Virus record (IMG/VR): IMGVR_UViG_3300035047_000236
DNA length: 62,853 bases
Source of the DNA: a virus
Strand: one strand, 5' to 3'
In this document: positions 731 through 62,853 of the stretch, one piece after another
Layout of the letters: every line of letters begins with the position of its first letter
Numbering within the stretch: position 1 is the stretch's first letter
Notes under the pieces: model-generated
The model's database searches: none
Told to the model about the DNA's origin: nothing
The model's input: the letters and a program-made list of their open reading frames with translations, nothing else
Translations under genes and position numbers: made by a program

Positions 731-1357
731 CTAAACTAACAACTTAATTCTTATTGGGTAGAGTGTAACGTTGTCAATATTTGCTTGACATTTTGCTACA
801 CTTGCACCTTTTAATACTCTAGCTACTTTTGTAGTAGAACATCTAGCGCCTGTTTCATGTGTTGCATCTGCGGCTACATCGTCAGAATTATTAGTAATTC
901 TAGCTTGATAACTTGCAGGATACAATGATTGGCCAGGAGCCATTTTAGAGTCTACAGCCCCATCAGTCATCTCACATGTATAATGAACAGTATCAAAAAT
1001 ACCTAAATGCGCTACACCAACAGGTACAGATTTATGTCCTGTTATTTCACCAGTAGCATTATATAAAGGTTGAGCAATAGCATCACTTGAACCCAAATCA
1101 CCAGGCATAACAAATCCTGTAGGGTGTACACTATGATATCCAACCTTAACTTTTTGCATAATGAAACCAAAAGGAGTTTCAGTAACTCCATGTTCCATTT
1201 TTTTCACCATTGCCTCTTCATTGGAAGCATCAGGATCTAAGTAAACAACTGAACCAGCATAAGCAACTACGCCGCCTACTCCGTCTGAGCCAAAAGAATC
1301 GCTTTCAGCATAACTACAAAACTGGTTTTCTACAACTGGATGTCTCGGAATAAACAT
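731..1357 (-). CDS. Probable head decoration/structural protein
   Basis: 208 aa, Gly/Val-rich, between scaffold and capsid genes. Confidence 0.5.
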   Translation of the reverse strand: MFIPRHPVVENQFCSYAESDSFGSDGVGGVVAYAGSVVYLDPDASNEEAMVKKMEHGVTETPFGFIMQKVKVGYHSVHPTGFVMPGDLGSSDAIAQPLYNATGEITGHKSVPVGVAHLGIFDTVHYTCEMTDGAVDSKMAPGQSLYPASYQARITNNSDDVAADATHETGARCSTTKVARVLKGASVAKCQANIDNVTLYPIRIKLLV

Positions 1358-1376
1358 ACCTTTCTTTCCTCCTTAT

Positions 1377-2090: not shown

Positions 2091-2211
2091 ATAACTTATT
2101 TACCTCCTAATTTAGTAAATTAAAAATTAAAATTTGAATTAATACCAACCTGATTTATTCTTATTTTTTAAAACCTTTTAACCTTTTCCGTATGTACTTA
2201 ATTCATTAATA

Positions 2212-2637
2212 CTAAGGGTAACTCTGAGATGGAGCACCTGTGCCCCTTGTGTTAAATCTACTTACATCTATAGCGGCTCCTAACATAACCTGAACATTAA
2301 AAGTCACATCTCCAGAAACTGAAGATCCTACAACTAATTTAATGATATTATCATCTGTATCATATTCAAGCCAATATCTTCCGCCTGGGTCTGATTTAGG
2401 TGTAGCCACTACGTTAGCATAACTTGCTAAATCCATATCATAAAACTTCACACCACTAGCTAATGTAACTTCGTCTGTTCCACTAGCTACTACTGCCTGC
2501 GAAGCCCAAGTCCAAGGGATGTAGTGGTTATTACCCATACATTTGAATGCTGCTGAAGACTTATCAGAACCTGACAACTTAAGTTGTTTCGGTGTACTTC
2601 TAAGTTCACCAGTTTGAGCTTGTCCTAAGTCTGGCAT
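2212..2637 (-). CDS. Hypothetical virion structural protein
   Basis: 141 aa, beta-rich, in the head module. Confidence 0.45.
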   Translation of the reverse strand: MPDLGQAQTGELRSTPKQLKLSGSDKSSAAFKCMGNNHYIPWTWASQAVVASGTDEVTLASGVKFYDMDLASYANVVATPKSDPGGRYWLEYDTDDNIIKLVVGSSVSGDVTFNVQVMLGAAIDVSRFNTRGTGAPSQSYP

Positions 2638-2640
2638 AGA

Positions 2641-3780
2641 TTATTTCCTCCTTAAATTTTTATTTGATAAAGTTCTTGCTTTATCTAAAATTCTTATTAG
2701 ACGATCTGTTGCCTCATCTATATTTCTATCAGATCGTTCATAATTAAAAAGTTCGTTTATATATGAAGATGCGGTGGTTGTTATTTTATTTGTTAAGCAA
2801 TCATCATCTAAAGAGTTTTTATTTTCAGATGAACATTTTTCTCCATACTCTGTGCACCAATCTTCTTGTAACAAACTACCTTTTTCATCATTTAAATTTT
2901 TCATATATTTTGGGCAGACTTTAGCATCTGCTTCTGCTTCTGCTTCTGCTTCTGCTTCTGCTGTTATGTTTTCTTCATCCAAGTCTGAATTTTTTTCTTC
3001 CTCTACAGTATCTTCATTTTCTGAAGCTACCTCTATATATATATCGAGGTTAAATAAAACCTCTTCATTTTCATCATCTTTTTCATCAGCTGTTTCTAAA
3101 ACAACAGACGGTGGATTTGCTGGATTCTTAACTATACCGCAACCAGAAAAACAAATACCTCTAAGAACCCTAGCTACTTCTCCAGAAGCAACTTCTTTAC
3201 CATCTTTTATAATTTTTCCTAGTTTTCCATATATACTAACATCAGAAGTTTCTATACCTATTGCTTCTGCAGTAGTTCTTGGTATAATCATATCACCTAC
3301 TTTTATGTCAAAATCCTTGTAAAAACATTCCATAGAGACCTTCCATTCATCATCAGCTATTTCTTTAGAAAGTTCTGGAAATCTACTTTTATATACTATA
3401 CATCCAATTTGTATATGCATATCACTTGTATCTAGTACAGCTGTTTCAAGACCTGCTAATTCTTTAGAAGAAAGTTCGCTTCCTGAGTCATCTGTAAATG
3501 CACTAGAGAATATATGCCCTATTATGTCTTTTTCCTTGTGCTCTACATCAAGAGCCTTACTAACAACCGTATTCTCTGCTGCAACTAATTCTGAACCAAG
3601 GAAATATGCATGATTTAGATTTTCTCCGCTGGAAACAAAAATCGCACTAAAATAAGAAAGATCTGGTTGTTTTTCATCATCACTTGGTAAATCTATAACA
3701 GATGCGACCTCTTTTTTCAGAGAATCTGTTTCTTTCACTTTTGTCATATTTGCCTCTAAATAAAACTTATATTCTTCCAT
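2641..3780 (-). CDS. Probable prohead maturation protease / head morphogenesis protein
   Basis: N-x-N-x-x-x-F, DVEH...IIGH, VSMEC and FSGCGIVKNPANP motifs typical of large-phage head maturation proteins. ATG 3780 follows GGAGG. Confidence 0.6.
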   Translation of the reverse strand: MEEYKFYLEANMTKVKETDSLKKEVASVIDLPSDDEKQPDLSYFSAIFVSSGENLNHAYFLGSELVAAENTVVSKALDVEHKEKDIIGHIFSSAFTDDSGSELSSKELAGLETAVLDTSDMHIQIGCIVYKSRFPELSKEIADDEWKVSMECFYKDFDIKVGDMIIPRTTAEAIGIETSDVSIYGKLGKIIKDGKEVASGEVARVLRGICFSGCGIVKNPANPPSVVLETADEKDDENEEVLFNLDIYIEVASENEDTVEEEKNSDLDEENITAEAEAEAEAEADAKVCPKYMKNLNDEKGSLLQEDWCTEYGEKCSSENKNSLDDDCLTNKITTTASSYINELFNYERSDRNIDEATDRLIRILDKARTLSNKNLRRK

Positions 3781-3814
3781 TTTTTCCTCCAAGAATCTAC
3801 TTTTTTAATCATTA

Positions 3815-3961
3815 TTAAAGTCCTATTGTAACTGCTGTGCCGAAGGCTGAGTTTCCATCATCTCTGTAAGCAATAACTACTTTGTTGTTGGCTGAGTCGA
3901 AAGTTTCTGAGGCCAGGTATGTGTTTTCGCTTTCGAAAACCACCGGCTCCACGAACACCAT
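3815..3961 (-). CDS. 48-aa ORF, single copy of a phage tail-protein repeat (not in track)
   Basis: MVFVEPVVFESENTYLASETFDSANNKVVIAYRDDGNSAFGTAVTIGL. Confidence 0.45.
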   Translation of the reverse strand: MVFVEPVVFESENTYLASETFDSANNKVVIAYRDDGNSAFGTAVTIGL

Positions 3962-3984
3962 AAACTTCTTTCCAACCACTATAA

Positions 3985-5040
3985 TTAACACCTGTTGAAT
4001 AACACTTGTTTATAACTTACACTTTTTTTATTTTCACACAGCACACACACAAACTTCCTATGGTGTGGTCTAGTACCTTTTGCTACCATTCTCATAGCAC
4101 TATCATTCAACCTGTTTTCTCTACAAAACTCACTTAAGTTCTGAACAACCTCTGTGTGTCCATCAGGAAATGTTATTTCCCAAAACTTACTTTTCGCTTT
4201 TACAACTTTTGATACATGTTCTTTACTTTTCTTAATTCCTTTAAATCTTTTTGATGTCAATTTTTTAACATGTTCTGGGCAGGGAGTTCCTTTCTTTGAT
4301 TCAGATATTTTAAGTATTGATTTTTTAGTGTGCTTTCTACCTGGTGAACCTTCACCACCTAAAGTCATATTATATCCACCACTAATTGAATCAAACTGCT
4401 TTATATAATGAAACTCCATATCATCCATTTCATACTTACTCTCACACTGACATAGAATTTCCCACTCAAAATTTTCTAAACCGTATTTTCTTATTGCTTT
4501 ATGAAAGTGTGTTGTAGAATTATTGTTTGCCATACTTATATGATCAATTCTTCTACTTTCTAAACTTTGTATTGTTTGTCCTATATAAACCTTACTGTTT
4601 ATTGTGTTGGTTACTTTATAGATTATACCATCAACTTCAGTGTTTGAATTTCTTAATATTTTATATTTTCTCTTTAATCTACATTTTGGGCATCTAGTTC
4701 CCATTTTCCAACTATAGTAAGCAACACTATGAATATGACCATTTGGGCATTTATACTTCAATTTTGTATGTCTATTTATGTACTCATCTGATAGTAAAGT
4801 ATAACCTTCTTCTTCAAAAGAATTCTTTACTTCATCAAACGAAGGCTTTACATTACCAGCACATACTGGACATCTTCTACCTATAGGCCCCCATGTAAAC
4901 CAATTAGTTTCATACTCATGCCCATTAGGGCATGTACATCTAAATCTGTGCCTATTGTTAACATACACATCGTCTAACAATTTATAACCTTCACTATTCA
5001 AACTATCTCTAATAAAGCCAACAGTAAGTTTAGCTACCAA
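3985..5040 (-). CDS. Free-standing GIY-YIG homing endonuclease with N-terminal Zn-ribbon repeats and NUMOD3-like tail
   Basis: Two CPNGH...CP.C units, then GIIYKVTNTINSKVYIGQT and GYNMTLGGEG. Likely TTG start at 5040 after GGAGG. Confidence 0.85.
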   Translation of the reverse strand: MVAKLTVGFIRDSLNSEGYKLLDDVYVNNRHRFRCTCPNGHEYETNWFTWGPIGRRCPVCAGNVKPSFDEVKNSFEEEGYTLLSDEYINRHTKLKYKCPNGHIHSVAYYSWKMGTRCPKCRLKRKYKILRNSNTEVDGIIYKVTNTINSKVYIGQTIQSLESRRIDHISMANNNSTTHFHKAIRKYGLENFEWEILCQCESKYEMDDMEFHYIKQFDSISGGYNMTLGGEGSPGRKHTKKSILKISESKKGTPCPEHVKKLTSKRFKGIKKSKEHVSKVVKAKSKFWEITFPDGHTEVVQNLSEFCRENRLNDSAMRMVAKGTRPHHRKFVCVLCENKKSVSYKQVLFNRC

Positions 5041-7231: not shown

Positions 7232-10200
7232 TTACTTGGGTTTCTTTTTTAAAACAGCCGCCCCAAAATATGAGCTATTAAGGACCTTTTCGTTCATAAT
7301 CAATGATTTAGAACTAAAATTACTAAAATTATTACCACCATCCCTGTATCTAATTAAGCCGCCGTCTTGATAAAGTATATTATCATCCTCTTCCTCTAAC
7401 TCCCTTTCTATCTGTCTTGCTCCATGGGCAGCAAGTATTAACGCAGAATACAAGTCCTTATTCATATTTTTAGTAGGGGTGTCAAAGTGTAAAATACCTG
7501 TAGCAGTTTGTGTAACAATGATACTTAACATCTGTGATTTAAGTGTTCTTACATTATCATAACGTTTAGATAATAAATCATCTGCCCCTATATCTAGTTC
7601 AGGGAATTTTAATCTTTTATCTTCTAACATTGATTTAGTAGTAAAATTAGCATCTGATATCCACGCTGGGTTGAAATTAACCATCTCTAATATATGTCTT
7701 CCCTCAAGGTGCTTATTATCAGGATTAGTCCTATCTATAATAGGCTCTTCTCCATTGTAACCTTCTTCTAATAAATCCATTACTGCTTTACCTCCACCGC
7801 CTCTATCAACAAAAACACGTATAACGTTATAGTTGTTACATATCTCTTGAATTAACTTAGTTAGTTGTTGAGTTGTTTTACTTTTCGCTTCTATAATATT
7901 AATTATTTTATTTACAGCGCCTACTTCTATTATAACAACACCACAACTAGCCGAACCTCCCTGGTTTGGATCTACTCCTACTACATACCTTTTTGACGAC
8001 TCACCAGTAAAATTTAATGTAAATCCAGAACCGTTTGTACACTCTTCTAACAAAGATGCTTTAAAAAAACCTTCTGAGTCTGAAACCATCATAGCCTCAT
8101 ACTCCATACTAAACTCATGTTGATTCATAATACGTTTAGCTTCCGCAATATTCGCTTTATCAAGGAAACCTTCTGGTAGATCCCAGTAAGGTACCTGCCA
8201 AACTGAATAAGGACTTTTGTCGCCTATTTTTTCTGCATCATCAACCATTTTCCAATGGTCCTTCATTCTTCTCCACATATGATTGAACTTGTAATAACCA
8301 GAAGAAGTCATAACCATTTTATTTACTTTTTCTTCTAAGAAATCCTCTGCTGTTGCAAGCCCAGAATCAATAAGTCTCTTTTGCTCTTCTAATTTTCTAA
8401 CACGTTCCATAGGGGCCATTGATGTTGCCCCCATAGGACGGACGACCATATCTATTACTTGGTCTGGTATTTGTGCAAGTTCGTCCATGGCTATTAAATA
8501 GAAACGAGATCCACGTATTTTCGACCCATCTGAAAGCGGAAGTGCCTCAACATAAGACGGTGTTTTTCCAGCAACAGCTTTAAACTTTAAATAACATGTG
8601 TCTGAGCCTCTTGTAGGTTTTTTAGATGTTGCCTCTCTAAGTATAGATGACTGGTCATATAATTTCTCAACCTCGGAGAAAATCATTTTTGAATTATGAT
8701 TTATAAAACCATTAGCCCAATAACAATGCTCATTTTCAACTTCTATGTCTATAGTTTTAGCAAAAAACTTTTTTATGTTTTTTGGTTTTACAAAATAAAA
8801 ATCATTGTCTATCAGATATTTTAATTTATCAAAATCATCACATAATACACCTAATTGTTCTGCTATAAATAATAATTTTCTAATTCTACCAACACTATAA
8901 TTAGATCTTCTATGTTTCTTATGTTTATTTAAATACCAATCAATGCCATATATATTTTCAGTGTCTAACACTCTACATTTTTCTGCAAGACTCCACACAG
9001 ACTTAAAAGACATAGGTATACTATTATTAAAATCTTCCTTGGTTAAAGATTTTATATAAGACAGCAATAAATTGGATTTCCTATCTAATCCAAAGTTAAC
9101 CTCATCACTGAATAACATTATATTGTCTGTTCCAGTAACCCTTATTCTATAACACTCTTTACAATCATGAAACTTACCTGTGTTTTTAAAAAATGTTTTC
9201 TTTTCTTTTGATTTTATAGAAAAAGAAGACACTACTCCCAAATTAAGTAATATTGATTGTATTTCTTTACATAACCTTTTACTTATAGATACATATTCAA
9301 TAGTACATGATTTGCTCATCTTGCTTTGTGAAACATAACAAGAACCGTCAGTATCAAACACACCTCTTAGAAATGCTTTTATATTGTGCTCATTTGTACC
9401 TCTAATTATATAAGGAACTTTTTTATCTATAGCAGTAGTACTACTCATACCTAAGTTTTTGAAGAAGTTCCACAGGACTATACTATATATCTCTATTCTA
9501 TATAAATTTCCATCAAACTTTATATTTATTCTATCTTCATTTATTCCAAAACTATTAAATAATATTTTTTTATATTTATCTATTATTTGTTTATCATTAC
9601 TACAAAAACCAACTGACCAAAACCTATTTTTAGTTTCCTCAGATTCTAACCAACCGTCTCCAACCAATAAACCTAACATATAAGATAAGTCTTCGTCTAA
9701 AGTATTAGGTAATTTAATATCATTCATATACCTATCATAATTTTTTATTATACTATAGTTATCTATATTTACGTTATCACCAAACAGCCTAAATCCTTTT
9801 CTAATAGCTAAATAATCATCATTAGATATATCAGACAATTTTTTATAATCTAAAGTCATATCTTCTAATAAAGTTAAGACCCTATGATCTGTAGTTCCAG
9901 ACAAATGAAAACCTTTTTCTGTATCTATTAATACACATTCTCTTTCTTCGTTAATCCATTTATTTTTAATTGTGTTATAAGAACAAATAGATTGTATTTT
10001 TGTCTTTTCCTCTACTATAGAATTATAAAAGTTACTTGTTCCTACTTGTAATCCACTGTTTGTCCAGAAAGTATCATAAATACCAGAGCCCGTTGGAAAT
10101 ATTGTCAGGCATTGCCTAAAGACGGGGCCTATGAGCCCAACCCTATATCCAGGATACAACAAACAAGAAAGGGCCGATAAAACTCCCAATAAATAGGTCT

Positions 10201-10393
10201 TACCAAACCCTCTTGAACATACTGCTATAACATAATTCTTAAACCACATATCCCTAAAAACCATCCTTTGTATAGGTGCTAAATCCACACCTAACAATTC
10301 ATAAGCAGCTATACATGGATGCTGTCTATAAAACTCAATTAAATGAGTTCCATTGACCATTAGCTCATTTAAATTATGTCTTCTTCTAGACAC
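7232..10393 (-). CDS. terL: Terminase large subunit with intein
   Basis: Walker A SRGFGKT, Walker B LIAMDE, coupling motif MTSS, nuclease VGVDP...DLYSA. Confidence 0.92.
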   Translation of the reverse strand: MSRRRHNLNELMVNGTHLIEFYRQHPCIAAYELLGVDLAPIQRMVFRDMWFKNYVIAVCSRGFGKTYLLGVLSALSCLLYPGYRVGLIGPVFRQCLTIFPTGSGIYDTFWTNSGLQVGTSNFYNSIVEEKTKIQSICSYNTIKNKWINEERECVLIDTEKGFHLSGTTDHRVLTLLEDMTLDYKKLSDISNDDYLAIRKGFRLFGDNVNIDNYSIIKNYDRYMNDIKLPNTLDEDLSYMLGLLVGDGWLESEETKNRFWSVGFCSNDKQIIDKYKKILFNSFGINEDRINIKFDGNLYRIEIYSIVLWNFFKNLGMSSTTAIDKKVPYIIRGTNEHNIKAFLRGVFDTDGSCYVSQSKMSKSCTIEYVSISKRLCKEIQSILLNLGVVSSFSIKSKEKKTFFKNTGKFHDCKECYRIRVTGTDNIMLFSDEVNFGLDRKSNLLLSYIKSLTKEDFNNSIPMSFKSVWSLAEKCRVLDTENIYGIDWYLNKHKKHRRSNYSVGRIRKLLFIAEQLGVLCDDFDKLKYLIDNDFYFVKPKNIKKFFAKTIDIEVENEHCYWANGFINHNSKMIFSEVEKLYDQSSILREATSKKPTRGSDTCYLKFKAVAGKTPSYVEALPLSDGSKIRGSRFYLIAMDELAQIPDQVIDMVVRPMGATSMAPMERVRKLEEQKRLIDSGLATAEDFLEEKVNKMVMTSSGYYKFNHMWRRMKDHWKMVDDAEKIGDKSPYSVWQVPYWDLPEGFLDKANIAEAKRIMNQHEFSMEYEAMMVSDSEGFFKASLLEECTNGSGFTLNFTGESSKRYVVGVDPNQGGSASCGVVIIEVGAVNKIINIIEAKSKTTQQLTKLIQEICNNYNVIRVFVDRGGGGKAVMDLLEEGYNGEEPIIDRTNPDNKHLEGRHILEMVNFNPAWISDANFTTKSMLEDKRLKFPELDIGADDLLSKRYDNVRTLKSQMLSIIVTQTATGILHFDTPTKNMNKDLYSALILAAHGARQIERELEEEDDNILYQDGGLIRYRDGGNNFSNFSSKSLIMNEKVLNSSYFGAAVLKKKPK
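8693..10111 (-). mobile_element. Intein (473 aa) with LAGLIDADG endonuclease in terL
   Basis: Junctions FRQ|CLTI and GFINHN|SKM, block B TTDHRV, motifs LGLLVGDGW and FLRGVFDTDG. Confidence 0.92.
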
Positions 10394-20992: not shown

Positions 20993-23569
20993 TCATCCTA
21001 TCGTTTTATCTTGTAAAAGATCCGCCACTTCTAATATAGTACTTCTATAAGAATTTTCAAGGTTTACATATGCAATTGATTCATGTGGTAAAACTCTAAG
21101 GAGTTTAAGAAGTCCAGACTCTGAAGGTTTAACCACATCATATGTTTGTGAAAGATCACCTAATAAAATCAATCTTCCAGATTCTGATGGTCTACTTAAT
21201 ATCATACTCATGTAACTAACATCTATAAGCTGTACTTCATCTACAATCAATGTGTCATTATCTAATAGAGATAATCCTTGGATTGAGTTCATAGGTAATG
21301 GCTCTAGTTTTTCTCTGAATAATATGTCTTTTACATAATCGTACCCTTCTCCATCTTTTTGCTGTCCTCTGGTATTAGAGTATAGATAATATAGAGCACT
21401 CATAAAACCAGCAAGCCAGTCCTGCATTTTATCTTCTTTAGTGTTATGGGTTACTATAAAGTCATCTGTTATATACAAACTTTTCTCACTATTTATTTTA
21501 ATACATTTAACAGCTTCTTTACCATTATATATTATATCTTTTATTTTAACATGCCTGTTTCTAGTTGGCATTTTCACTCTATTTGCTTTCCTAGATAAAT
21601 GAAAAACATTAATGTTATCTGATTTTGGTATACTAATTTCATAAGATATGTGTCTAGTAGTTATATCTCCCATATTTTCTGGTCTTTTAGTGGTTTTTCC
21701 AATTCTATTTCTAGTATAATAAGTAGCATTCATTCCTAAAGATCTTGATATCTCTATTATGTCGTCTGCTAGTTGTTTGCTTATAGTGGTTAATGATTGT
21801 TCACCAGTAGTATCTTTTATTGTACCATCTGTGTCCATTAGTCCTTGTAATATGGAAATTCTATCTTCTACTGAAGATCTTTTATAAATTTCCGGTATAA
21901 ACTTAGTATTAGATTTAGTATTTTCTAATCCTAATTCATATATACAGTTTTTAATATAATTTTGCCATCTCTTACTCTTACCAAATCTATAACTTTTACC
22001 GTCCACAGTAGATTCTTTTTTACATCTTCTCCGTAAAGTAGTTGTACTCACATTTATGATTTTACTGGCTTCTACAACTGAAGTAAATACTGCCTCGTTA
22101 TTGTTTTTTATATCAGTAATTATTACTGGTTTGGCAGGTTTATTTGAAGTGTAGTTTCCACTAATAGTGTAACAAATATTATGTCTAGTTAAATACATAG
22201 AATATTCTTTAATTTCACTCTCTACCCTATTTACGATCTCATGATCTGTAGAATAAAACGATATGCTGTTTGAAAAAGAACCATCTCCTAAAAGAACTCC
22301 CATAGTATAAGGTTTTATTGGTAGCTCATTATTACTGTCATATTGTACTATATTACACATCGGTAGTGTGTGATTATACTTATCTCCTGAATTTTCATTT
22401 ATTAGTGTGTTTTTTATTTCCAATGTAGATCTTAGTTTAAAATCATAATTATGTTTTAATTCATTATGTGTTTTAGTAGCCCACAAGTGGTCACCACAAG
22501 CTCTAGTTTTTCCACCATTGGTGGTTTCTATAGTATATACATCTTTAATACCTTTATCATATATCTCTAAAACCTCTGCTTTTTCTCCGTCCGAAGTTAT
22601 AACATAGTCGCCATTTTTTATCTTTCCCATAGTAGTCCATCCAGCAGGTGTTAGTATTTTAGCATCTAACGGTTGTGGTCCAGGAACAAAACCTATATTG
22701 TATTTAGAGTTCAAACCTATAGGTGCCCTAGAAACAAATATTTTTTTATCCTCATTTATTAGAGCTGCACTTAAAGATAACAAACTTTTTCCAGAACCCC
22801 ATTTTCCAGTAATTAAAACATGTTGAGATTCTTTTAAAGCATATATAGCACATGTTTGATAAATATCTCTAGCTTTAATAACTTTAGCTTTTTTATTTCT
22901 AATAACTCTATATTCAGGGTCATCATCTATTTTTTGAAAAATTCTTTTTATTGGATTATGTGCATATACTACATTGTTTTCATCATATGTTTCTATTATA
23001 ATGAAAAACCACGAATTCATTTTGAATTCTTTAGAAGCGGTTTTTGAAAATAATTCGAATACTTCTTCGTACTCACCGAATTCAAATAACCTATTGTACC
23101 CAAAGGTCCCTTCTTTATTGTTTTTAAATAAATCATCTTGTTTGATATAAACATAAGGATTAAAAATATTGTTTAAAACAACATCATAAAGTCTGGTATC
23201 TAGTTTTTGCGAGCTGGCAATTATGTCCATAGACATGTCTTTAGTAGCTATTATAGCATCATATCTTTTAGCACACTCTATTATTTTTAAATCATTGGTT
23301 GATCCATCTAAATCATTTAATTCTGTATCAAATATTATTTTGTCTGGATATTTATCTCTAAAATCTATTAATGCTCTTATAGCCTGTCTAGCACTAAAAG
23401 CTGTATCTTTTTTAAATTTATGTTTATCTAATTCTTTTAAAACTGCTATAGGTATTACTATTTGTTTATAATTATTTGTTAATTTGTATAATATTTTTGA
23501 ATCATCTAACAGTAGATTAGTATCTACAATAACTTTTTTATCAATAGCAATAACTGAGTTTTTTAGCAT
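20993..23569 (-). CDS. phoH: PIN-PhoH (PhoH2-like) protein with intein
   Basis: PIN motifs VDTN...LKELD...ND...TKD, Walker A GKWGSGKS, IGFVPG, IVDEVQ, LLGD..Q. Confidence 0.9.
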   Translation of the reverse strand: MLKNSVIAIDKKVIVDTNLLLDDSKILYKLTNNYKQIVIPIAVLKELDKHKFKKDTAFSARQAIRALIDFRDKYPDKIIFDTELNDLDGSTNDLKIIECAKRYDAIIATKDMSMDIIASSQKLDTRLYDVVLNNIFNPYVYIKQDDLFKNNKEGTFGYNRLFEFGEYEEVFELFSKTASKEFKMNSWFFIIIETYDENNVVYAHNPIKRIFQKIDDDPEYRVIRNKKAKVIKARDIYQTCAIYALKESQHVLITGKWGSGKSLLSLSAALINEDKKIFVSRAPIGLNSKYNIGFVPGPQPLDAKILTPAGWTTMGKIKNGDYVITSDGEKAEVLEIYDKGIKDVYTIETTNGGKTRACGDHLWATKTHNELKHNYDFKLRSTLEIKNTLINENSGDKYNHTLPMCNIVQYDSNNELPIKPYTMGVLLGDGSFSNSISFYSTDHEIVNRVESEIKEYSMYLTRHNICYTISGNYTSNKPAKPVIITDIKNNNEAVFTSVVEASKIINVSTTTLRRRCKKESTVDGKSYRFGKSKRWQNYIKNCIYELGLENTKSNTKFIPEIYKRSSVEDRISILQGLMDTDGTIKDTTGEQSLTTISKQLADDIIEISRSLGMNATYYTRNRIGKTTKRPENMGDITTRHISYEISIPKSDNINVFHLSRKANRVKMPTRNRHVKIKDIIYNGKEAVKCIKINSEKSLYITDDFIVTHNTKEDKMQDWLAGFMSALYYLYSNTRGQQKDGEGYDYVKDILFREKLEPLPMNSIQGLSLLDNDTLIVDEVQLIDVSYMSMILSRPSESGRLILLGDLSQTYDVVKPSESGLLKLLRVLPHESIAYVNLENSYRSTILEVADLLQDKTIG
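21443..22678 (-). mobile_element. Class 3 intein (412 aa) with LAGLIDADG endonuclease
   Basis: Begins PQPLDAKILTP (Pro1). WCT signature: GDHLW, VKCIKI, VTHN|T. Motifs MGVLLGDG and LQGLMDTDG. Confidence 0.88.
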
Positions 23570-45624: not shown

Positions 45625-46053
45625 AGTTATTTTCCTTTTCTGATTGTTTTACTATAGTTATTGGTACTGTTTGTAGTAAAGACTTATTATGATAGTAATA
45701 TGGTTAATGTTATGATTATTAATACTACTTATCTAATAATATCATAGTCAGTTAAATATTTAACATTCTATTTAAATAGAGTTTGGGTACCATTCTATGA
45801 TGGTCATCTATATTTAAAATTCACCAAATTTTGGGACCCAGGGTAACAGGGTTATGAGATGTATATTTTACATATACATTTTGGTTATAGCCCCCTTAAC
45901 TGATTGGCAGTTGACTGGGACTATGAGTGATCAACTGGACTCAATCATAAGCATTTGATTGAACCACCTGGTTGGTTGCTTTATTTTTTCAGGGGACCCC
46001 CCCTGGGTCTAACTGCCAGGATACTTGGTAGCAACCCTCTTACAAGGAGGTGC

Positions 46054-46404: not shown

Positions 46405-46572
46405 ATGAATCCGAAGATTAAGTGGAGTATATATGCAGCACTGCTGGTTCTCTTCGTTGAGGTGAACTGGATATGTGCTGATTTGTCAATGAGCTACAGG
46501 GAGTTCCTCAAAGTTTTCTGTTGGGAACTCCCTGTAGAATTAGTTAAGGCTTGGATTCCAGGTCTTAGCTAA
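46405..46572 (+). CDS. Small membrane protein (55 aa, not in track)
   Basis: MNPKIKWSIYAALLVLFVEVNWIC... Confidence 0.4.
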   Translation: MNPKIKWSIYAALLVLFVEVNWICADLSMSYREFLKVFCWELPVELVKAWIPGLS

Positions 46573-46634
46573 TCTATCGTGACATCCCTAACTGCCAGGG
46601 GTCTTGGCAGCAACCACACACATAGGAGGTCTAT

Positions 46635-46820
46635 ATGACTCAACAATGTGATTACCTCGAAGCCCATTATGACCATCATGGCGAAGCTTATGAAGTACTT
46701 TGCCTTAAAGGTCAGGACTGCTGTGACGGATGTCATCATTATTCCGTCACAGTAAGTGGTGACATTGGAACTTCTGCACTGGCAAGCACATATGTCAGTG
46801 ACTCAAAAATTCCTTTCTAA
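46635..46820 (+). CDS. Cys/His-rich small protein
   Basis: AGGAGG RBS. Confidence 0.65.
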   Translation: MTQQCDYLEAHYDHHGEAYEVLCLKGQDCCDGCHHYSVTVSGDIGTSALASTYVSDSKIPF

Positions 46821-47043
46821 CCATTGAGGTTTTGGAGAGAAATCCTGCACCCCGCCAGAGGTGTATCACTCAATCTGGTAGCCCGCGTACAAGCGACCGC
46901 CAAGTGGTGTGGGTGGAAACAGCAGCATTAACAGTGCTGGCTGACAGACGCTTGTGTAACTTCCATGTTAATAACCGTTGTGCTCCGCTTTGAGGAGATT
47001 GCCTACCATAGTGCGTAGGTCAACATTAACATGGAGGCTTATA

Positions 47044-47465
47044 TGATAATCCGTTGGTTAGGGGCTTTTCGTAAGTCCAATAGTAACGGGTTATTGGATA
47101 GTCTCGTGTGGGAGACTTCCCAGAATGACCGTACAGCTCTTGCAGCTGAGCGGTTGGTTAAGGGAAAGTCTCGTATCCACGGGTCTAAGATAGGCTTGCT
47201 GGTAAAGAATCGGTCACTTCTTCGGAAGTTTTCCGGTGATGTCTGGTCAGAGTATGACCCAGACACTGGTAAGCTTATCAAGACTCGGCATGAACACTCT
47301 GCATATTCAAGTCACACAGAGTGCTTCGTGCGCCCTGACTACTGTGGTATTGTGGTCAAACGTGGCGCACGGGAACGTGCTACCGAGACTGCAAGGGCAT
47401 TCGCACAGTCCCACGGATTGCCTTTGTTAAGACTTACCAGGGACGGAAGGTTGGTGAGTTTTTAA
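47044..47465 (+). CDS. Hypothetical protein
   Basis: GGAGG RBS shortly upstream; start near MIIRW (approximate). Confidence 0.6.
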
Positions 47466-47466
47466 C

Positions 47467-47845
47467 TAAGTTCAAGTGCCCCGATTCTTGAAACAGATAG
47501 GGGAAGGGTAAGCGGCTTGACCGCCGTTGTCCTGAACACCGGAGTATCCTCGGTGAGTATAAAAATAAGGATACAGGCTTGCCAGGGCGCCTAATAAAAC
47601 GCTGAGGACCTGGAGCGGCTTCCCCGCCAGCCGGAAGACATCTGCGGGCACAACCTGGATGCTTCGTAGCATATGAAGGGATTGTGTAAACATTAAGGAC
47701 TCTTGACACCACAGAGTATAAACAAAAGGTGACGGTGAGCCACATTGGTTCCTGTGTAATTCAGGATTAAATCACCGTGGCGGTAATCAAACCGTCGATA
47801 TTAAACCACTCCGGTCAAGGGGAACGCTGAACCGGAGTTTTATTT
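47467..47845 (+). ncRNA. Candidate large structured non-coding RNA
   Basis: No plus-strand ORF with RBS, dense hairpins and at least three H-type pseudoknots. Confidence 0.55.
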
Positions 47846-48151
47846 TAGCAAAGCCCACTGCATATGAAAGGAGTCTATAATAACTACAATCAACTTTTCC
47901 ACCAACGGCACAATTTGTTTCCCCGTTTCCGCCTCTACCGCCAATAGGATTAATAATGAGGTACGGCGTGCATGCCTTTGTCTGGAGGCAGAGGTGAACA
48001 TAGCCAGCCCCACAATCACACCGTCCACCTACAACCCAACAACTAACACACAACCAACCTATTCATATGCACAGTCCAGTAACTAACCTCCACCCAGTTC
48101 CGTGGTCGTTTTATTATTACACTAGACTGTGATTATGAAACATACTAGTGA

Positions 48152-48207
48152 ACTCGTCATGGCGAGTATAAATAGACCTTAAGCCATGAGCGTCCTTATG
48201 GGGTGGT
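48152..48207 (+). ncRNA. Pistol self-cleaving ribozyme
   Basis: P1 ACUCG/CGAGU, loop UCAUGG pairs with CCAUGA, AUAAAUAG, P2 ACC/GGU, UUAAG...AGCG, P3 UCC/GGG, GU cleavage site at 48203/48204. Confidence 0.9.
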
Positions 48208-48246
48208 AATTACAATAATCAATAACTGTATAATAGGAGGCGATGA

Positions 48247-48426
48247 ATGGACAAAAAGGCAAGGGTTATAGTCCTCTACGAAGATAACACCATCTTCGAC
48301 ATCTATGAGTTTGATTTGAGGACTAGAAAGGATGGTTTGTCTAAACCTCTCTGTGATATGCTTTGGATTGCAGAGCAGATCAGACCTGATGGTGGAAAAA
48401 TTCAGGTTGATTTTATCAAAGATTAA
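48247..48426 (+). CDS. 59-aa hypothetical protein downstream of the ribozyme (not in track)
   Basis: GGAGG RBS, MDKKARVIVLYEDNTIFDIYEFDL... Confidence 0.65.
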   Translation: MDKKARVIVLYEDNTIFDIYEFDLRTRKDGLSKPLCDMLWIAEQIRPDGGKIQVDFIKD

Positions 48427-48754
48427 ATTTTCATGTAGTAATAATTAATAACTGAAAGGAGATTATCATGGATTTTAAATGTGTACTGCTACTTGGAGGA
48501 GCTTCCGCAGTTGTGTTGTTTTGGATTATGCTTCTTCTCAGTAATATAATGATATAAGAAACAACACATGGTCAAGTGGAACTCTGAACCATGATACTAA
48601 TATACCTAGCGGCACACCAATATAAACAGCCATGGCACAGGGCTTACAATACTGTGCCCTTCCATATAAACTATTAAGCTACAGTTTGATGGTGTATATG
48701 GGAGTAGTAGCCCACTGCGGGCAGAAGCAGTAACCTTGGATAGGAGGTGTTCCT

Positions 48755-48949
48755 ATGGCACGGCAGTCTCGGCGTCATGGTAACAACACTGTCCGTGTAG
48801 CTAAGAGAATGGTCGATTACATCTGCTGGCGTATCGACCGTGAATCTGAAGCCATGCGCGACAGAGGTGAACCTTCAAGAAGAACAGACAGGTCCGCACT
48901 GAACGATTATCGAATCGACAGTGACGGCTCCCGCGTCTGGTCATTCTAG
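48755..48949 (+). CDS. Arg-rich small protein
   Basis: AGGAGG RBS. Confidence 0.65.
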   Translation: MARQSRRHGNNTVRVAKRMVDYICWRIDRESEAMRDRGEPSRRTDRSALNDYRIDSDGSRVWSF

Positions 48950-49068
48950 ACTAGGTCACCAAACGGAAGCTGAATAGATGTACCCGACTATTCGGTTAAA
49001 GGTAGGGTTCTTGCCAGGCATACCAAGTAAGTCCTGGCTTATTACCTTGTTAATTAAAGAGGTGTTTT

Positions 49069-49230
49069 ATGCCGTATGTAAATTGTGTACAATGTGGAAG
49101 ATTGTTCGAAGATGTTTCGGATGACGGGTTAGAATCTTTTTGCCCTTCCTGCCGAGAATTGCAAAACGATGTTATTGCCCAGAGAGAAGCTGAACTTGAT
49201 GACAAATGGGGAATTTACGAGAAAATTTAA
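49069..49230 (+). CDS. Zn-ribbon small protein (not in track)
   Basis: MPYVNCVQCGRLF...FCPSCR, GAGG RBS. Confidence 0.6.
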   Translation: MPYVNCVQCGRLFEDVSDDGLESFCPSCRELQNDVIAQREAELDDKWGIYEKI

Positions 49231-49242
49231 CAGGAGGTAGAA

Positions 49243-49596
49243 ATGAAAGCATTATTAGGTGTATTGTTTGTAATGTCTGTTGTTTTAGCTGGCAGTGAAG
49301 GCCCTTGGTTTCCGTGGATTAATTGTTTGGGGCTTGTTGGTATGGTTGCATTTGTTATACTGTGCAACAAGTATTTACCCAATGAGGAAGACCCTATATT
49401 ATCATTATCATTAGAAGATGGTGATGATGTAATCAATCAGCTCGCAGAGTTGTTTGAAATGGGTTGGGAGATGAGCGAACAGCTGAAGTTCGAAAGAACG
49501 ATGACTTATTGGAAACTGGGTAGCATTGCTCAGCAGACAAGAGAGCTGAACCAGGTCAGTATTGAAATGGCTGAACTGGAAGGTAAGTTTAATTAG
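49243..49596 (+). CDS. Membrane protein
   Basis: Two N-terminal hydrophobic segments, AGGAGG RBS. Confidence 0.7.
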   Translation: MKALLGVLFVMSVVLAGSEGPWFPWINCLGLVGMVAFVILCNKYLPNEEDPILSLSLEDGDDVINQLAELFEMGWEMSEQLKFERTMTYWKLGSIAQQTRELNQVSIEMAELEGKFN

Positions 49597-49711
49597 TTTT
49601 GAGCTTACTAATCGTTTTAGTACTAGTGGTTAATGTATGAGCCACCTCATGTATCAGAATATGTGGTATATGGGGTGGCTAGTAAGTTAATTACTAAACA
49701 AAGGAGGTATT

Positions 49712-50116
49712 ATGGCAAGAGTGTATGTAGATTGTGATGGGTGCCTATTAGGAGGTGCCTTGGATGCGGAATACGAGAAGGTAAAAGAAGAGTATGGTGA
49801 CGAAGTTGCAAATGAGCGGTATTCAGGTAAGTATGTTGATGACTTGCCTCTGAATAAAACTCTTTGGATGAGGCTTCTGGAATTACATACTCAAGGTCAT
49901 GAGTTGGTTCTGTGGACTAACAGGAACCACGACAAAAGCGAGATGACATTCAATAACCTCGCTAAGCATGACATACTTAAATACTTCCAGATGTTCATAT
50001 TTGCAGCTGGGATAAAGGCTGAAATTGGTAAGTGCCACGACGGTGTGGTATTCGATAATGACTTCAGGAATGAAGTTGATTGCCTGGAGTTTAACTACAT
50101 CCATACGTTTATGTAA
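49712..50116 (+). CDS. HAD-superfamily hydrolase
   Basis: VYVDCDGCL, LWTNR, VFDND. Confidence 0.75.
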   Translation: MARVYVDCDGCLLGGALDAEYEKVKEEYGDEVANERYSGKYVDDLPLNKTLWMRLLELHTQGHELVLWTNRNHDKSEMTFNNLAKHDILKYFQMFIFAAGIKAEIGKCHDGVVFDNDFRNEVDCLEFNYIHTFM

Positions 50117-51416: not shown

Positions 51417-52025
51417 ATGAGAACTAACACTAACAAAAACCATGATCCTAACACAATTATGCTAAACTATGAGTTCTGTAATATCCAGGAACTCAAATGC
51501 ATGCTCCTTAAAGGAACAGATTTGGTGTTTGAAAAGATTAAACTTTATGATGAAGCTCCTGCTACCAAAACACCATTTATGGAAGAAGATTTGTTCGGAA
51601 ACGATTTCCATTTGTTTTTACATTCAAGATACAGGGGTGGAATTGGTATTGAAATTAACTTTGATGCCACTCTCAACCGGCTCAGGAAGATTAATCAAGA
51701 TTTAATTTGCCAGGGAATACGGTGTAAATGGAGAGTCGAATACATGAATCTTCGGAACCAGTCCTCTGGAGTTGTTTATAATTTCAGAACAGAGATGGAA
51801 GGTAAAGTCTGTTGTATGTATCTGGAAAATGTAAACGGCAAACACTACACCTCTTTGTCTAAAGAAGAATTTAAAGAGTGTATAGTAGATCTTGCAGATA
51901 TAACCTATACACCATGTTACAAGAAAAATGGTAAAAGAGAACCTGCAGAGAAATGCAGTGCTAGATTTCAAACAGACGAACAGTTAAAAGATATGGACAG
52001 CAGTATAAGAAATGTATGGAATTAA
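51417..52025 (+). CDS. Hypothetical protein
   Basis: AAGGAG RBS. Confidence 0.7.
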   Translation: MRTNTNKNHDPNTIMLNYEFCNIQELKCMLLKGTDLVFEKIKLYDEAPATKTPFMEEDLFGNDFHLFLHSRYRGGIGIEINFDATLNRLRKINQDLICQGIRCKWRVEYMNLRNQSSGVVYNFRTEMEGKVCCMYLENVNGKHYTSLSKEEFKECIVDLADITYTPCYKKNGKREPAEKCSARFQTDEQLKDMDSSIRNVWN

Positions 52026-52035
52026 AGGAGGACTA

Positions 52036-52506
52036 ATGCCGACTAACACAGTCTATGGTGATTTAATCACCCTTGCAGAAAACGGTCATTTCGATGTCAT
52101 AGTGCATGGATGTAACTGTTTCTGTACTATGGGTGCTGGAATTGCCAAACAGATTAAAATGAGGTATCCTGAAGCCTATGAGGCTGATTTGAGAACCTTG
52201 AGAGGTGACATGAGGAAACTTGGTACATACTCTTGTGCTAATGTAAAGTGCGAGAGAACTGGTATCAATTTCACCATTGTCAATGCATATACTCAGTTCA
52301 GGTACGGTAAGGGTAATCATGCCGACGAACTGGCTATAGATGCTGTATTCAAAGCAATTGCTAATGACTTCCATCCCCACAGTAGGATAGCTTACCCCAA
52401 AATTGGGGCTGGTTTGGCTGGAGGCAATTGGGAAAGAATCAGCAGGATAATTAATTATGCACTGGCGGGCAGAATTCACACGCTAGTGGTTTTTGAAAGG
52501 AGGTAA
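52036..52506 (+). CDS. Macrodomain (ADP-ribose hydrolase) protein
   Basis: GDLI...IVHGCNCFCTMGAGIAKQI...NAYTQ...YPKIGAGLAGGNW. ATG 52036 after GGAGG. Confidence 0.9.
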   Translation: MPTNTVYGDLITLAENGHFDVIVHGCNCFCTMGAGIAKQIKMRYPEAYEADLRTLRGDMRKLGTYSCANVKCERTGINFTIVNAYTQFRYGKGNHADELAIDAVFKAIANDFHPHSRIAYPKIGAGLAGGNWERISRIINYALAGRIHTLVVFERR

Positions 52507-52507
52507 A

Positions 52508-52951
52508 GTGAGAATTATTACTATTAACGATGGAATAGACCACATCAACATCTATTCCAAGGGTAGAACTGAGCTGGGAAGATTTCTTTCCAACTTTGCC
52601 CATACCCCTATCAACACGGAGGACGGTCAGTTCGCTTCCATAGAAGGGTATTGGTACTGGCTTGGGTCAGGACATGACGTACTCAGGGAGCTGTACGGGT
52701 TTAAAGCTAAGTCCATGGGTAAGTCTCTTGTAAAGACGAGACACATCCATGAGCAGGAGTTTAAGAGGAAAATATATGCTGCCTGCTGGCAAAAAATATA
52801 CAGCAGGCCGGATATGTTCTCTGAATTTGCCGATTCCAACCTTCCATTTACACATTACTATGCCTATGGCAACAAAATTGTGAATGCTGGGCACACGTGG
52901 GTAGTGGATATGTGGACAAATTTTCGTTCTTATATCAAAAACACCAACTAA
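52508..52951 (+). CDS. NADAR-like (T4 gp30.3-like) protein
   Basis: INIYSK...LSNFAHTP...FASIEGYWYWL. GTG start after GGAGG. Confidence 0.65.
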   Translation: MRIITINDGIDHINIYSKGRTELGRFLSNFAHTPINTEDGQFASIEGYWYWLGSGHDVLRELYGFKAKSMGKSLVKTRHIHEQEFKRKIYAACWQKIYSRPDMFSEFADSNLPFTHYYAYGNKIVNAGHTWVVDMWTNFRSYIKNTN

Positions 52952-57737: not shown

Positions 57738-59612
57738 ATGACAACTCAAAATCAGCAGGCAGAGGTTCGGATCGAAGAAGCATCGTCAATCATTGTGCAC
57801 CAAAACGTGTTTGGTCCGATTGCAGTCATTAACCCTGAGATGGTAACGCCCAAAACCATTTCAATCATGGATGAAGCACTGAAAATGGGTGATGCCAACA
57901 TGGTAGGCCACGGCCTGTATTCCATCGTTTTCAGAATGGATGGAATGCCTTGGGGCAATTTGACTGAAAACGGTACACATGAATTCAATACCTGGAGGTT
58001 CTATTGGGGTTCTAAAACAGCGGTGTGCAATCTTCAGCACTGCATCAGAATTGCCATTAAGACTTCCCAGGATGAGATCCGCCCGGAAGACGGGGATGAA
58101 ATCATGTGTATGAGTGTACACATGCTTACCTGGAAAAACATCCTTCAGGGCTTCCTGCATGAGTGCAGACACGCACAAAGGTTTGCAATGGATACTGATG
58201 GCGAATTGATTGATGCTCTTGACTCCAACGATGCGGATGCATTGGCAATCGAGGAAGAAGACGCAAACAAATATGCAAGAGAATCACTCTTCAAGCTGGC
58301 ACAACAGTTTGAAATCGAGCCTGAATTCTCTCAGGAAATGGTTGCTGCAATCAATAAAGAGCTCGAAGAAGAGTTCGAATCCATTGAAACAGATCCGGAG
58401 CCAAACCCTGATATGGTAAAATGGGCAGAAGCACAGACATTCATGATTGAACGTGGAGGCGTATTCTATGCCCCAGGCGATCCGTCAAAGGCAGAAGAAG
58501 ACATTCATATGATGACATTCAAAGAATTCCTTCATATGTGTTCTGGCGCACCAGAAAGCGATTCTGCCTGGAATATGGAGCCAAAGAGCGTGGTTCTTGA
58601 ACTTCGCCAGAAGCCCTGGAATGCCACAGCAGCAGACCCGGCAGAACAGAACAAAACTGGTGGCAGTGATAACACACATGCCAATTACAATGCTGAAGCA
58701 GATTACGATCCTGAGTTCGATGAGGATTTTGAATACCCCAACGGATTTCAAGGGGTAGGCCAATTTCAGGCAGCCCCTCAGCAACCGGCCCAGCAGCAGT
58801 ATCAGCAGCCTGCTCCGGCCCAGCCACAGTATCCTCAGTATCCTCAGTATCAGCAGCCGGTTCAGCAACAGGCTCCAGCTCAACAGCAGTACCCTCAGTA
58901 CCAGCAGCCGGTTCAGCAACAGTATCAGCAGTATGCTCAGTACCAGCAACCGGTTCAGCAACCCGTCCAACAACAATACCCTCAGTACCAGCAGCCTGTT
59001 CAGCAGCAGTATCAGCAGCCGGCTCAGCAGCAGTATCAGCAGCCGGCCCAGCCTACGGCAAACGACCAGGCAGCAGTTGTAGGGGGTATGGCATATCCAC
59101 CGCTTCAGATTGATAATGCAGCAGTGAAGTCAATTGTGTATGGTCTCTTCAAAAAGCTCAATGCACACATCTTTGCTGGTTGTAATTTCAACCCCTCCAA
59201 CCACTCACTTCCTTTTGAGGCTGCAAGCAATATCACGATGCCGCTGCCCCTTACCAAGGAAGAAATGATGTTCGTTAAAGAAATGACCATCAGAGAAGGG
59301 GATACAAAAAAGGCCGGTATCAAATGCGAAGGCAACATTATTGGAACCTTCATAGATAAAGCCAAAAAGCTGCCGGGCTATGAGTTCGTAATTCAAAGTC
59401 CTGAGGGTCACCAGCTTGTTCGTAAGCTTATTCCGCAGAATCCGAACAAACCGAACAAAGATGGAAGCGGACTTAGCGTTACTGCTCAGGAAGCACGTAA
59501 CGGTAATCACATCCTGTGGCTACTTGATGTCATGAGTGGCAAGTTCATTGGCCGTATGTATAATGGACAGGTACAAAGGATGGAAGCTGGTAAATGGATT
59601 TCTGCTGAGTAA
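57738..59612 (+). CDS. HExxH metallopeptidase-like protein with a Q/P/Y-rich repeat linker
   Basis: FLHECRHA...EEDANKYA (ImmA/IrrE-like spacing), QQYPQYQQPV repeats. Confidence 0.7.
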   Translation: MTTQNQQAEVRIEEASSIIVHQNVFGPIAVINPEMVTPKTISIMDEALKMGDANMVGHGLYSIVFRMDGMPWGNLTENGTHEFNTWRFYWGSKTAVCNLQHCIRIAIKTSQDEIRPEDGDEIMCMSVHMLTWKNILQGFLHECRHAQRFAMDTDGELIDALDSNDADALAIEEEDANKYARESLFKLAQQFEIEPEFSQEMVAAINKELEEEFESIETDPEPNPDMVKWAEAQTFMIERGGVFYAPGDPSKAEEDIHMMTFKEFLHMCSGAPESDSAWNMEPKSVVLELRQKPWNATAADPAEQNKTGGSDNTHANYNAEADYDPEFDEDFEYPNGFQGVGQFQAAPQQPAQQQYQQPAPAQPQYPQYPQYQQPVQQQAPAQQQYPQYQQPVQQQYQQYAQYQQPVQQPVQQQYPQYQQPVQQQYQQPAQQQYQQPAQPTANDQAAVVGGMAYPPLQIDNAAVKSIVYGLFKKLNAHIFAGCNFNPSNHSLPFEAASNITMPLPLTKEEMMFVKEMTIREGDTKKAGIKCEGNIIGTFIDKAKKLPGYEFVIQSPEGHQLVRKLIPQNPNKPNKDGSGLSVTAQEARNGNHILWLLDVMSGKFIGRMYNGQVQRMEAGKWISAE

Positions 59613-60102: not shown

Positions 60103-61005
60103 ATGGCCATTACAACAATTTTGAACTGCAGAGTAGCTGGTGCACCGAACTATTATCCCGCATACATTCCCCAGAACGGAAACAAACCGGTCCGTCAGAG
60201 ATGTGAAGTTGCCGTATATGAAAACGATGGTGACAAGACCAATACGTTCAGGGTTACAGCGTTCGGTAAAATGGCTGATATCGTGGCACGTTCCTGCGGT
60301 ACCGGCAAACAGCTGGGATTGACTTTGAAAACCCATACCTTTGATGGAAAAGTCGCACTTCCTGGTGGCCAGCCCGGCACTCCGCCCAATTTCGTTATCG
60401 GTCAAGATGGTCAGCCGATTACCATCAAAAAGACCGGTCATATTATCATGGATATTTCCTTCGGGGCCGATTCCGAAAAACAGGAAGTATCAGAAATCAA
60501 AGGAGGATTCAGACCTGCCATGTGGAATGTGAAGGGTCATCCCGACCATCAGACATGGAAAAATATCTGTGCCCAGAGAAATTCGATTGAATACCAGCCC
60601 GGCATGACATCATTCGGTTATGCAAACGTGTTGAAACCGAACGGGCAGGTTATCTCTTCACAACAGCTGCAGGGTATGAATCAGCAATATGCCGGCAATC
60701 CCCAGGCCGTAGGAAACGGGTTTGCAGGTATGAACCAGCAGAACGGATACGGTCCAGCACAGCAGCCGGCTCAGCAGACGCCGCCTCAGCAGAATTCATG
60801 GGGCCAGCAGCCGTCAGCAAATCCCGTATTCCTTCATGGACAAAATGTCGGTTTTGCTCCGAACAATGTAGCACCTGCAAATCAGCAGGGTGGTTACAAT
60901 CCGGGGCCGGCACCGGCACAAAGCCCCCAGCAGGGTGGGTATAATCAGACCATGGGTTATGCCCCTAATACCCAGGGTGGCGCAGGTACAGCAGTAACCA
61001 TGTAG
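60103..61005 (+). CDS. Single-stranded DNA-binding protein-like
   Basis: OB-fold pattern FRVTAFGKMADIVARSCGTGKQL, Q/P/G/N-rich tail. Confidence 0.7.
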   Translation: MAITTILNCRVAGAPNYYPAYIPQNGNKPVRQRCEVAVYENDGDKTNTFRVTAFGKMADIVARSCGTGKQLGLTLKTHTFDGKVALPGGQPGTPPNFVIGQDGQPITIKKTGHIIMDISFGADSEKQEVSEIKGGFRPAMWNVKGHPDHQTWKNICAQRNSIEYQPGMTSFGYANVLKPNGQVISSQQLQGMNQQYAGNPQAVGNGFAGMNQQNGYGPAQQPAQQTPPQQNSWGQQPSANPVFLHGQNVGFAPNNVAPANQQGGYNPGPAPAQSPQQGGYNQTMGYAPNTQGGAGTAVTM

Positions 61006-62549: not shown

Positions 62550-62567
62550 CAGTATAAAGTAAACATT

Positions 62568-62853
62568 TTGACATTATATTATAATCTACTTGATTATATT
62601 ATAATCTACTTGATTATATTATAATCTACTTTGACATTATATTATAATCTACTTTGACATTATATTATAATCTACCTTGATTATATTATAATCTACTTTG
62701 ACATTATATTATAATCTACTTTGACATTATATTATAATCTACCTTGATTATATTATAATCTACTTTGACATTATATTATAATCTACTTTGACATTATATT
62801 ATAATCTACCTTGATTATATTATAATCTACTTTGACATTATATTATAATCTAC
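62568..62853. repeat. AT-rich tandem array, 13 copies of core ATTATATTATAATCTAC
   Basis: Periods 20,20,23,23,21,23,23,21,23,23,21,23. Runs off the window end. Confidence 0.95.

Follow-up and report, generated by a model that had tools for sequence, protein, structure and literature searches.

The DNA analysed here (62,853 nt, hereafter the window) is part of a large phage and encodes a terminase, a portal, virion proteins and many HNH endonucleases. Over the first 45.6 kb the genes lie on the minus strand at about 30% GC, and from about 45.8 kb onwards they are on the plus strand (40–49% GC), small, and mostly with no assigned function. Within this plus-strand block a 57-nt match to the Rfam family of pistol self-cleaving ribozymes (RF02679, 48152–48208) has the orientation of its flanking genes. 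It is followed by a 59-aa gene of unassigned function (48247–48426, +), and the nearest upstream gene supported by a homologue, a 144-aa gene (47031–47465, +; 53%-identical homologue in contig L036), ends 686 nt before the ribozyme match. A 72-codon open frame upstream of the ribozyme has neither a start codon nor a homologue. Farther downstream, the plus-strand genes include a macro-domain gene and genes for a PHROG-652 protein and a DprA/SLOG-like protein. Consensus scans of 47846–48152 gave no promoter on the plus strand, a search for extended -10 elements near the ribozyme returned noise only, and blastn of 46500–50000 against INPHARED phages gave no match.

Several other features of the window are worth recording. 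The terminase large subunit is oversized (1053 aa, 7232–10393, minus strand), an N-terminal or internal part of it being endonuclease-like, and a PhoH-like protein of 858 aa (20993–23569, minus strand) has an inserted segment matching terminase/DnaC/primase PHROGs; both proteins may contain inteins or fused homing elements. CAG/CCG-rich coding repeats (Gln/Pro/Tyr-rich) occur at 58600–59060 within a 624-aa ORF (57738–59612), and again at 60760–60815 within 60103–61005. At least 12 tandem copies of TTTGACATTATATTATAATCTACTT, with a period of 20–23 nt, occupy 62567–62853 up to the right end of the window; they could be iterons, an array of promoters or a repeat of the contig end. A leader motif able to form a hairpin, CTAACTGCCAGG...CTTGG.AGCAACC, occurs twice (46009–46036 and 46588–46615; 86% identity), each copy being followed by AGGAGGT and the second preceding a 61-aa ORF (46635–46820). 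Another candidate for a recurrent leader motif, AATAATNAATAACTG, has two copies only, which is not above chance, and was discarded. A small ORF with a DxDxx motif (49712–50116, 1.5 kb downstream of the ribozyme) is HAD-superfamily phosphatase-like, with weak matches to polynucleotide kinase/phosphatase and GmhB-like PHROG families, and is followed by the macro-domain and PHROG-652 proteins (52012–52951). We considered this ORF as an RNA-end-healing enzyme and set the idea aside, the PHROG matches being weak and no PDB match informative. No pistol cores were found in relatives of the PHROG-652 gene (L038–L059).

When the whole window was compared with 4,227 Rfam families (cmscan, Rfam 15), the sole match above gathering score was the pistol at 48152–48208 on the plus strand, with 59.7 bits against a gathering score of 34.5 and an E-value of 2.3e-8. 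The match spans the full model (positions 1–68 of 68) with no non-canonical pairs flagged, and all upper-case consensus positions of RF02679 are matched. The initial annotation had read a pistol ribozyme at 48152–48207 directly from the letters and named comparison with the Rfam pistol model as a check; that comparison bears the reading out, leaving the start in place and moving the end one base downstream, to 48208.

All of the pistol elements originally listed (P1, 6-bp pseudoknot, linker, P2, UUAAG, AGCG, P3 and GU) are recovered both by reading the sequence and in the covariance model alignment. In the latter, P1 is a hairpin of ACUC with GAGU (48152–48155/48164–48167) closing an 8-nt loop, GUCAUGGC, and the pseudoknot pairs UCAUGG (48157–48162) with CCAUGA (48184–48189), Watson-Crick at 6/6 positions. 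An A-rich linker, AUAAAUAG (48168–48175), in which every conserved consensus position is matched, is followed by the 3-bp P2 (ACC/GGU, 48176–48178/48205–48207), with the linker G left unpaired. The core (48179–48192) is made up of UUAAG (48179–48183) and GCG (48190–48192), and P3 (UCC/GGG, 48193–48195/48200–48202) has 3 bp (U-G, C-G, C-G) and a UUAU loop. Exactly two nucleotides, GU, join P3 to P2, and the predicted scissile junction is G48203–U48204 (model positions 63–64; site assignment according to Harris 2015, PMC4604425). In pistols this junction is 2 nt long, usually GU, strictly conserved in length, and bears the scissile bond (PMC4604425). The catalytic residues of the class are purine-32, the pair G33-C41, the general base G40, and G42 (PMC6154101; env25 structure 5K7C). 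With env25 residue numbering, in which the Rfam column equals the env25 number minus 1, all of them are found in the window sequence, as A48182, G48183 paired with C48191, G48190 and G48192, respectively.

For comparison, a generic core pattern was used to retrieve 35 IMG/VR contigs, in which pistols were then confirmed with Rfam. Hundreds of pistol ribozymes are known (for the class, see Weinberg et al. 2015). The window copy is not among the 35 contigs carrying the generic core, these contigs have nothing in common with the window except the ribozyme core, and the signature pattern of the window copy gave no matches in metagenome contigs. P1 and the pseudoknot can pair in 30/30 unique viral pistol 5' domains, and pseudoknot positions 3–5 covary. 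The strand pair of the window pseudoknot is absent from the 29 others; relative to the pair seen most often, UCUGAG/CUCAGA, three of its positions have changed in a compensatory way. The linker contains AUAAAUA in 29/30 of the compared pistols, while the unpaired G in AUAAAUAG and the 3-bp P2 are common to most of them. The E-value, together with a pseudoknot that is fully complementary and specific to this lineage, excludes a chance match, and the element is almost certainly a member of the pistol class. Judged from its sequence, it is a textbook-quality but ordinary pistol in the usual setting of the class, phage intergenic DNA.

Among viral pistols the position relative to genes follows a recurrent pattern. 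The Rfam end coordinates are unreliable for pistols with long P3 inserts, and an energy-driven re-parse overshot at several loci; distances were counted from ribozyme starts and from clear GU-junction cases only. By this count, 19 of 31 other unique viral pistols begin -1 to +21 nt from a same-strand stop codon, unlike the window copy, which is not at the stop codon of a supported upstream gene. A Shine-Dalgarno sequence (SD) and ATG follow 28–48 nt past the cut in 12 other viral pistols, including all six of contig L016. These six lie within 4 kb (306–4313), each 1–35 nt after a stop and with SD and ATG about 33 nt past the cut; L006 has an array of three (359–2041), and L014 (2993–5135) carries two pistols and two type-P5 twisters on the same strand. 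The window, by comparison, has a single copy: no further ribozyme reaches the gathering score anywhere in it or E≤1 within 40–56 kb, no Rfam match to a pistol is found at E≤10 in 47440–48150, and a regular-expression search gave no canonical or permuted pistol cores elsewhere in the window. As a separate observation, three viral contigs have a pistol 310–360 nt 5' of an Rfam GOLLD match on the same, minus strand (pistol/GOLLD at 837–912/94–475 in L003, 2550–2616/1867–2241 in L021 and 11396–11471/10630–11034 in L026). In these phages the 5' end of GOLLD RNA may be defined by cleavage of the pistol, a link that we did not find in the literature searched.

A closer view of the locus is offered by 13 metagenomic contigs (L060–L072) that encode variants of the 59-aa protein at ≥90% identity. 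Their homology to the window ends at 47877 (or at about 46010) and restarts exactly at 48215, downstream of which they are 94–97% identical to it. Another contig, L073, matches the window at 100% identity. Because homology breaks at these two points, we regard 47878–48214 as a lineage-specific cassette of 337 nt on the plus strand, in which the ribozyme is preceded by 274 nt of non-coding, C/A-rich DNA and followed by 6 nt. In L060–L069, homology of about 83% runs up to 47877 and the slot is then taken by a 176-aa STIV_B116-like gene, which starts with an ATG directly behind the GAAAGGAGUCUA RBS and stops 28 nt short of the 59-aa gene; in L070–L072 a deletion extends from about 46.0 kb to the last ~40 nt of the 176-aa gene. 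None of the 13 relatives has a pistol core, and Rfam at E≤1 gives no pistol in L060, L062, L070 and L072.

The window retains GAAAGGAGUCUA at 47866–47877 (+; RBS at 47866–47873, identical in L060) as a vestigial RBS without a start codon after it: what follows is CC-ATG of the 176-aa gene in L060 and UAAUAACU in the window. This orphaned RBS at the left edge, along with the remnant of the 176-aa gene in L070, suggests that the gene-bearing slot is the older state and the ribozyme cassette the derived one. The cassette has an open frame without a homologue and no similar DNA among the sequences compared. We rejected this frame (47880–48083) as a gene; apart from having no homologue, it has an estimated chance of ~0.1 of staying open in such a G-poor composition. 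The cassette was also rejected as a remnant of the replaced 176-aa gene, to which it has no similarity. Close relatives have the same 59-aa gene without the ribozyme, which is thus dispensable for it; by this comparison, the ribozyme is accessory and exchangeable, and not required for the downstream gene. In two of the sister phages we noted a sub-threshold twister-P1-like match (L060 2364–2422 and L062 972–1030; 25.5 bits, gathering score 67.2, E 0.15), which keeps GGUCCCAAG and the GAGGG core, is one hairpin short, lies upstream of a 140-aa gene and has no counterpart in the window. Possibly this is a minimal form of twister that occupies another slot within the block of genes.

Upstream of the cassette, about 47477–47846 (+), lies a conserved structured non-coding RNA that matches no Rfam family at E≤10. 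It contains units composed of a hairpin, an A-rich linker and a loop-complementary segment (e.g. 47537–47575 and 47699–47732), and the relatives have one extra 43-nt unit in this run of hairpin/pseudoknot-like units. The 9-mer GAGUAUAAA has 5 matches in the window against 1.1 expected; we considered the GAGUAUAAA units at 47555 and 47714 as decayed pistols and rejected them, as the 711-nt stretch has no Rfam match at E≤10. Alignment of 47466–47877 with L060 and L068 reveals strong conservation (~95% over the first 230 nt). The RNA is closed by a terminator-like hairpin with a U-tract (47808–47846, +; -15.6 kcal/mol), in which two compensatory double changes distinguish ACUCCGGU/ACCGGAGU of the window from ACCCAGGU/ACCUGGGU of L060/L068, with the U-tract kept.

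This arrangement bears on how transcripts reach the ribozyme, and on what its cleavage could achieve. The initial annotation had supposed that the ribozyme releases the upstream structured RNA block. That idea is not supported, because the same RNA, with its own covarying 3' hairpin and U-tract ending about 300 nt before the ribozyme, is conserved in L060 and L068, which have no pistol. With a terminator-like hairpin at this distance, transcription may reach the ribozyme only by read-through. Between the U-tract and the RBS of the 176-aa gene the relatives have no more than about 20 nt, so that read-through would be the simplest source of transcripts across the slot, and an internal, intercistronic position of the ribozyme is therefore the most likely one.

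On the downstream side, the predicted cut at 48203/48204 had been placed about 43 nt before a gene with a GGAGG RBS, and the coordinates agree: AGGAGG lies at 48235–48240 and the ATG at 48247. The leader of the 3' cleavage product (48204–48246, +; predicted 5'-OH) folds weakly on its own (-1.9 kcal/mol, z +0.9), and from 48215 onward it is conserved in all relatives. The 59-aa protein has no Pfam or PHROG family, has a 58%-identical homologue in L037 and is also encoded on a 187-kb contig; no pistol precedes its homologues in L037 or L060–L072. Neither L036 nor L037, the contigs with the homologues of the 144-aa gene (53%) and the 59-aa gene (58%), has a pistol in the vicinity or the gene order of the window. 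Just past the 59-aa gene there is a hydrophobic mini-ORF of 29 codons (48468–48557, MDFKCVLLLGGASAVVLFWIMLLLSNIMI) with a good RBS, which is called as a 29-aa gene in the sister contigs L060, L061, L063 and L064.

To our knowledge, a processing role of ribozymes between phage genes has been proposed and never proven. According to the proposal of Perreault et al. 2011, long transcripts are cut into messages of gene length by ribozymes that flank prophage genes, and in haloviruses the cut site of a hammerhead coincides with a mapped mRNA 5' end (PMC3088659); pistols, too, are frequent near phage genes (PMC4604425). We lean towards a reading in which the element is a genuine pistol, lies on a plus-strand mRNA that continues into the 59-aa gene at 48247, and uncouples the downstream messages. 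P1 and the 6-bp pseudoknot would form first, during transcription, and P3 and P2 would then dock G48203–U48204 beside G48190. As expected for the family, in which self-cleavage is Mg2+-dependent, the 2'-OH of G48203 would attack its own phosphate. The upstream RNA would keep the ribozyme body, which would form its compact 3' end and carry a 2',3'-cyclic phosphate, and the 3' product would begin with a 5'-OH and a weakly structured 43-nt leader, with AGGAGG left free before the 59-aa gene. Overall, messages of the downstream small genes would be uncoupled from the long structured RNA upstream. The layout fits processing, in that the ribozyme is co-oriented with its neighbours and has its ATG 43 nt past the cut, within the range in the other viral pistols, whereas it counts against processing that the window has a single ribozyme and that the idea was built on arrays. 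On balance, we consider the case for a transcript-processing role to be evenly poised. Where the host has RNase J1, a 5'-OH end can make an mRNA less stable, as glmS in Bacillus illustrates, and the sign of the effect on the 59-aa message would thus depend on host RNases.

One reason to doubt the activity of the ribozyme is its unusually short P3. At 3 bp it is the shortest of 32 unique pistols, in which 6–28 pairs are usual; the covariance model alignment deletes 5 consensus pairs in P3, and the P3 hairpin alone is worth -1.6 kcal/mol. By nearest-neighbour estimates, an alternative fold with a competing hairpin, CCAUGAG/CUUAUGG (-7.4 kcal/mol), reaches -16.6 kcal/mol and so equals or exceeds the stability of the native fold, which comes to roughly -15 kcal/mol (nested helices -5.2, pseudoknot duplex -9.8), and the active fold is therefore not clearly favoured at equilibrium. 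These features could be taken to mean that the short P3 and the competing hairpin have crippled the ribozyme, leaving an inactive or very slow relic. However, a targeted search yielded Rfam-positive pistols with intact cores and a 2-bp P3 capped by GAAA (L074, 55.2 bits) or a 4-bp P3 (L081, a Bacilli MAG, 53.4 bits), and a short P3 is evidently tolerated in nature, as these two predicted ribozymes show. Moreover, both strands of the pseudoknot are made ahead of the 3' strand of the competing hairpin, an order that would favour the native fold kinetically, and the catalytic residues of the window copy are complete. We therefore consider a relic decidedly unlikely and expect that the pistol at 48152–48208 probably cleaves at a useful rate.

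An active ribozyme need not be a useful one. It might be intact, and might even cut, and yet have come in with the swapped-in cassette without conferring any benefit, persisting as something recent or harmless. Its presence or absence among sister phages that are 94–97% identical just downstream is in line with such a passenger, as are the rest of the cassette being non-coding and without relatives, the useless RBS remaining at its left edge, and the absence of pistols near the distant homologues of either neighbouring gene (L036 and L037). The jump in identity to the relatives across the slot, from ~83% on the left to 94–97% on the right, further suggests a recombination junction. Against this stands the integrity of all conserved positions and all six pseudoknot pairs, as seen in one sequence (L073 being 100% identical), and we hold this explanation to be rather unlikely. 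Since sister phages do without the ribozyme, any benefit it brings should be small or conditional. Highly improbable, in our view, is that the ribozyme serves as a 3'-end maker for the upstream RNA or as a switch in which its GAGCGUCCUUAU masks the Shine-Dalgarno until cleavage. Pistols can border large non-coding RNAs, as they do 5' of GOLLD in L003, L021 and L026, but here the upstream RNA already has a covarying hairpin and U-tract of its own, unchanged in pistol-free relatives. As for the switch, an ensemble computed without pseudoknots has the SD paired nearly completely in the uncut RNA and 0.67–0.98 unpaired once the RNA is cleaved, and the duplex with GAGCGUCCUUAU reaches -12.8 kcal/mol, equalled by 2% of shuffled leaders. 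However, the leaders of ribozyme-free relatives pair equally well (-13.0 kcal/mol), which gives no sign of co-adaptation, and the native ribozyme fold would hold GAGCGUCCUUAU anyway. We thus discarded masking of the SD by the ribozyme as an effect that is weak (shuffle p about 0.02) and not lineage-specific.

Set against known systems, the pistol of the window shares with its class (RF02679; Harris et al. 2015, PMC4604425) the phage setting and all elements from P1, the 6-bp pseudoknot and the AUAAAUAG linker to P2, the UUAAG/GCG core and the 2-nt GU junction. It departs from the class in its P3, where 3 bp and a UUAU loop remain, a rare form but not a unique one (L074, L081). Like the ribozymes of Perreault et al. 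2011 (PMC3088659) and the arrays in L016, L006 and L014, it is intergenic, on the same strand as the genes, and has its predicted cut a few tens of nucleotides before the SD and ATG of the next gene; the role proposed for the Perreault type, the cutting of a long transcript into shorter messages, is also alike. In those arrays, however, several ribozymes flank the genes, whereas the window has a single copy, which does not abut a real upstream stop and is preceded by 274 nt of orphan non-coding DNA. The HHphage hammerhead of haloviruses HF1/HF2 (PMC3088659) is likewise a single ribozyme shortly upstream of a start codon, there that of the gene which opens a transcript unit, and its cut lies no more than 3 nt from a mapped mRNA 5' end. 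It belongs to another ribozyme class and an archaeal virus.

The window copy adds one pistol to a known class, in a place where it is expected, and its polymorphism and minimal P3 are handles rather than surprises. The value of the locus lies in its natural comparators, which are 94–97% identical downstream and in which the slot of the cassette holds a protein gene or has been deleted; with these sister phages at hand, a naturally minimal pistol of 57 nt with a 3-bp P3 makes simple tests possible. It is conceivable, though we think it unlikely, that the gene-less, RNA-only cassette of 337 nt, which took over the place of a protein gene exactly between a conserved RBS and a conserved leader, reflects an exchange of ribozyme and spacer among phages as a stand-alone 'punctuation' module, in the way that genes are exchanged. 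If that were true, the sister phages, with a ribozyme, a gene or a deletion in one and the same slot, would constitute a natural experiment on how a phage ribozyme affects the message downstream of it.
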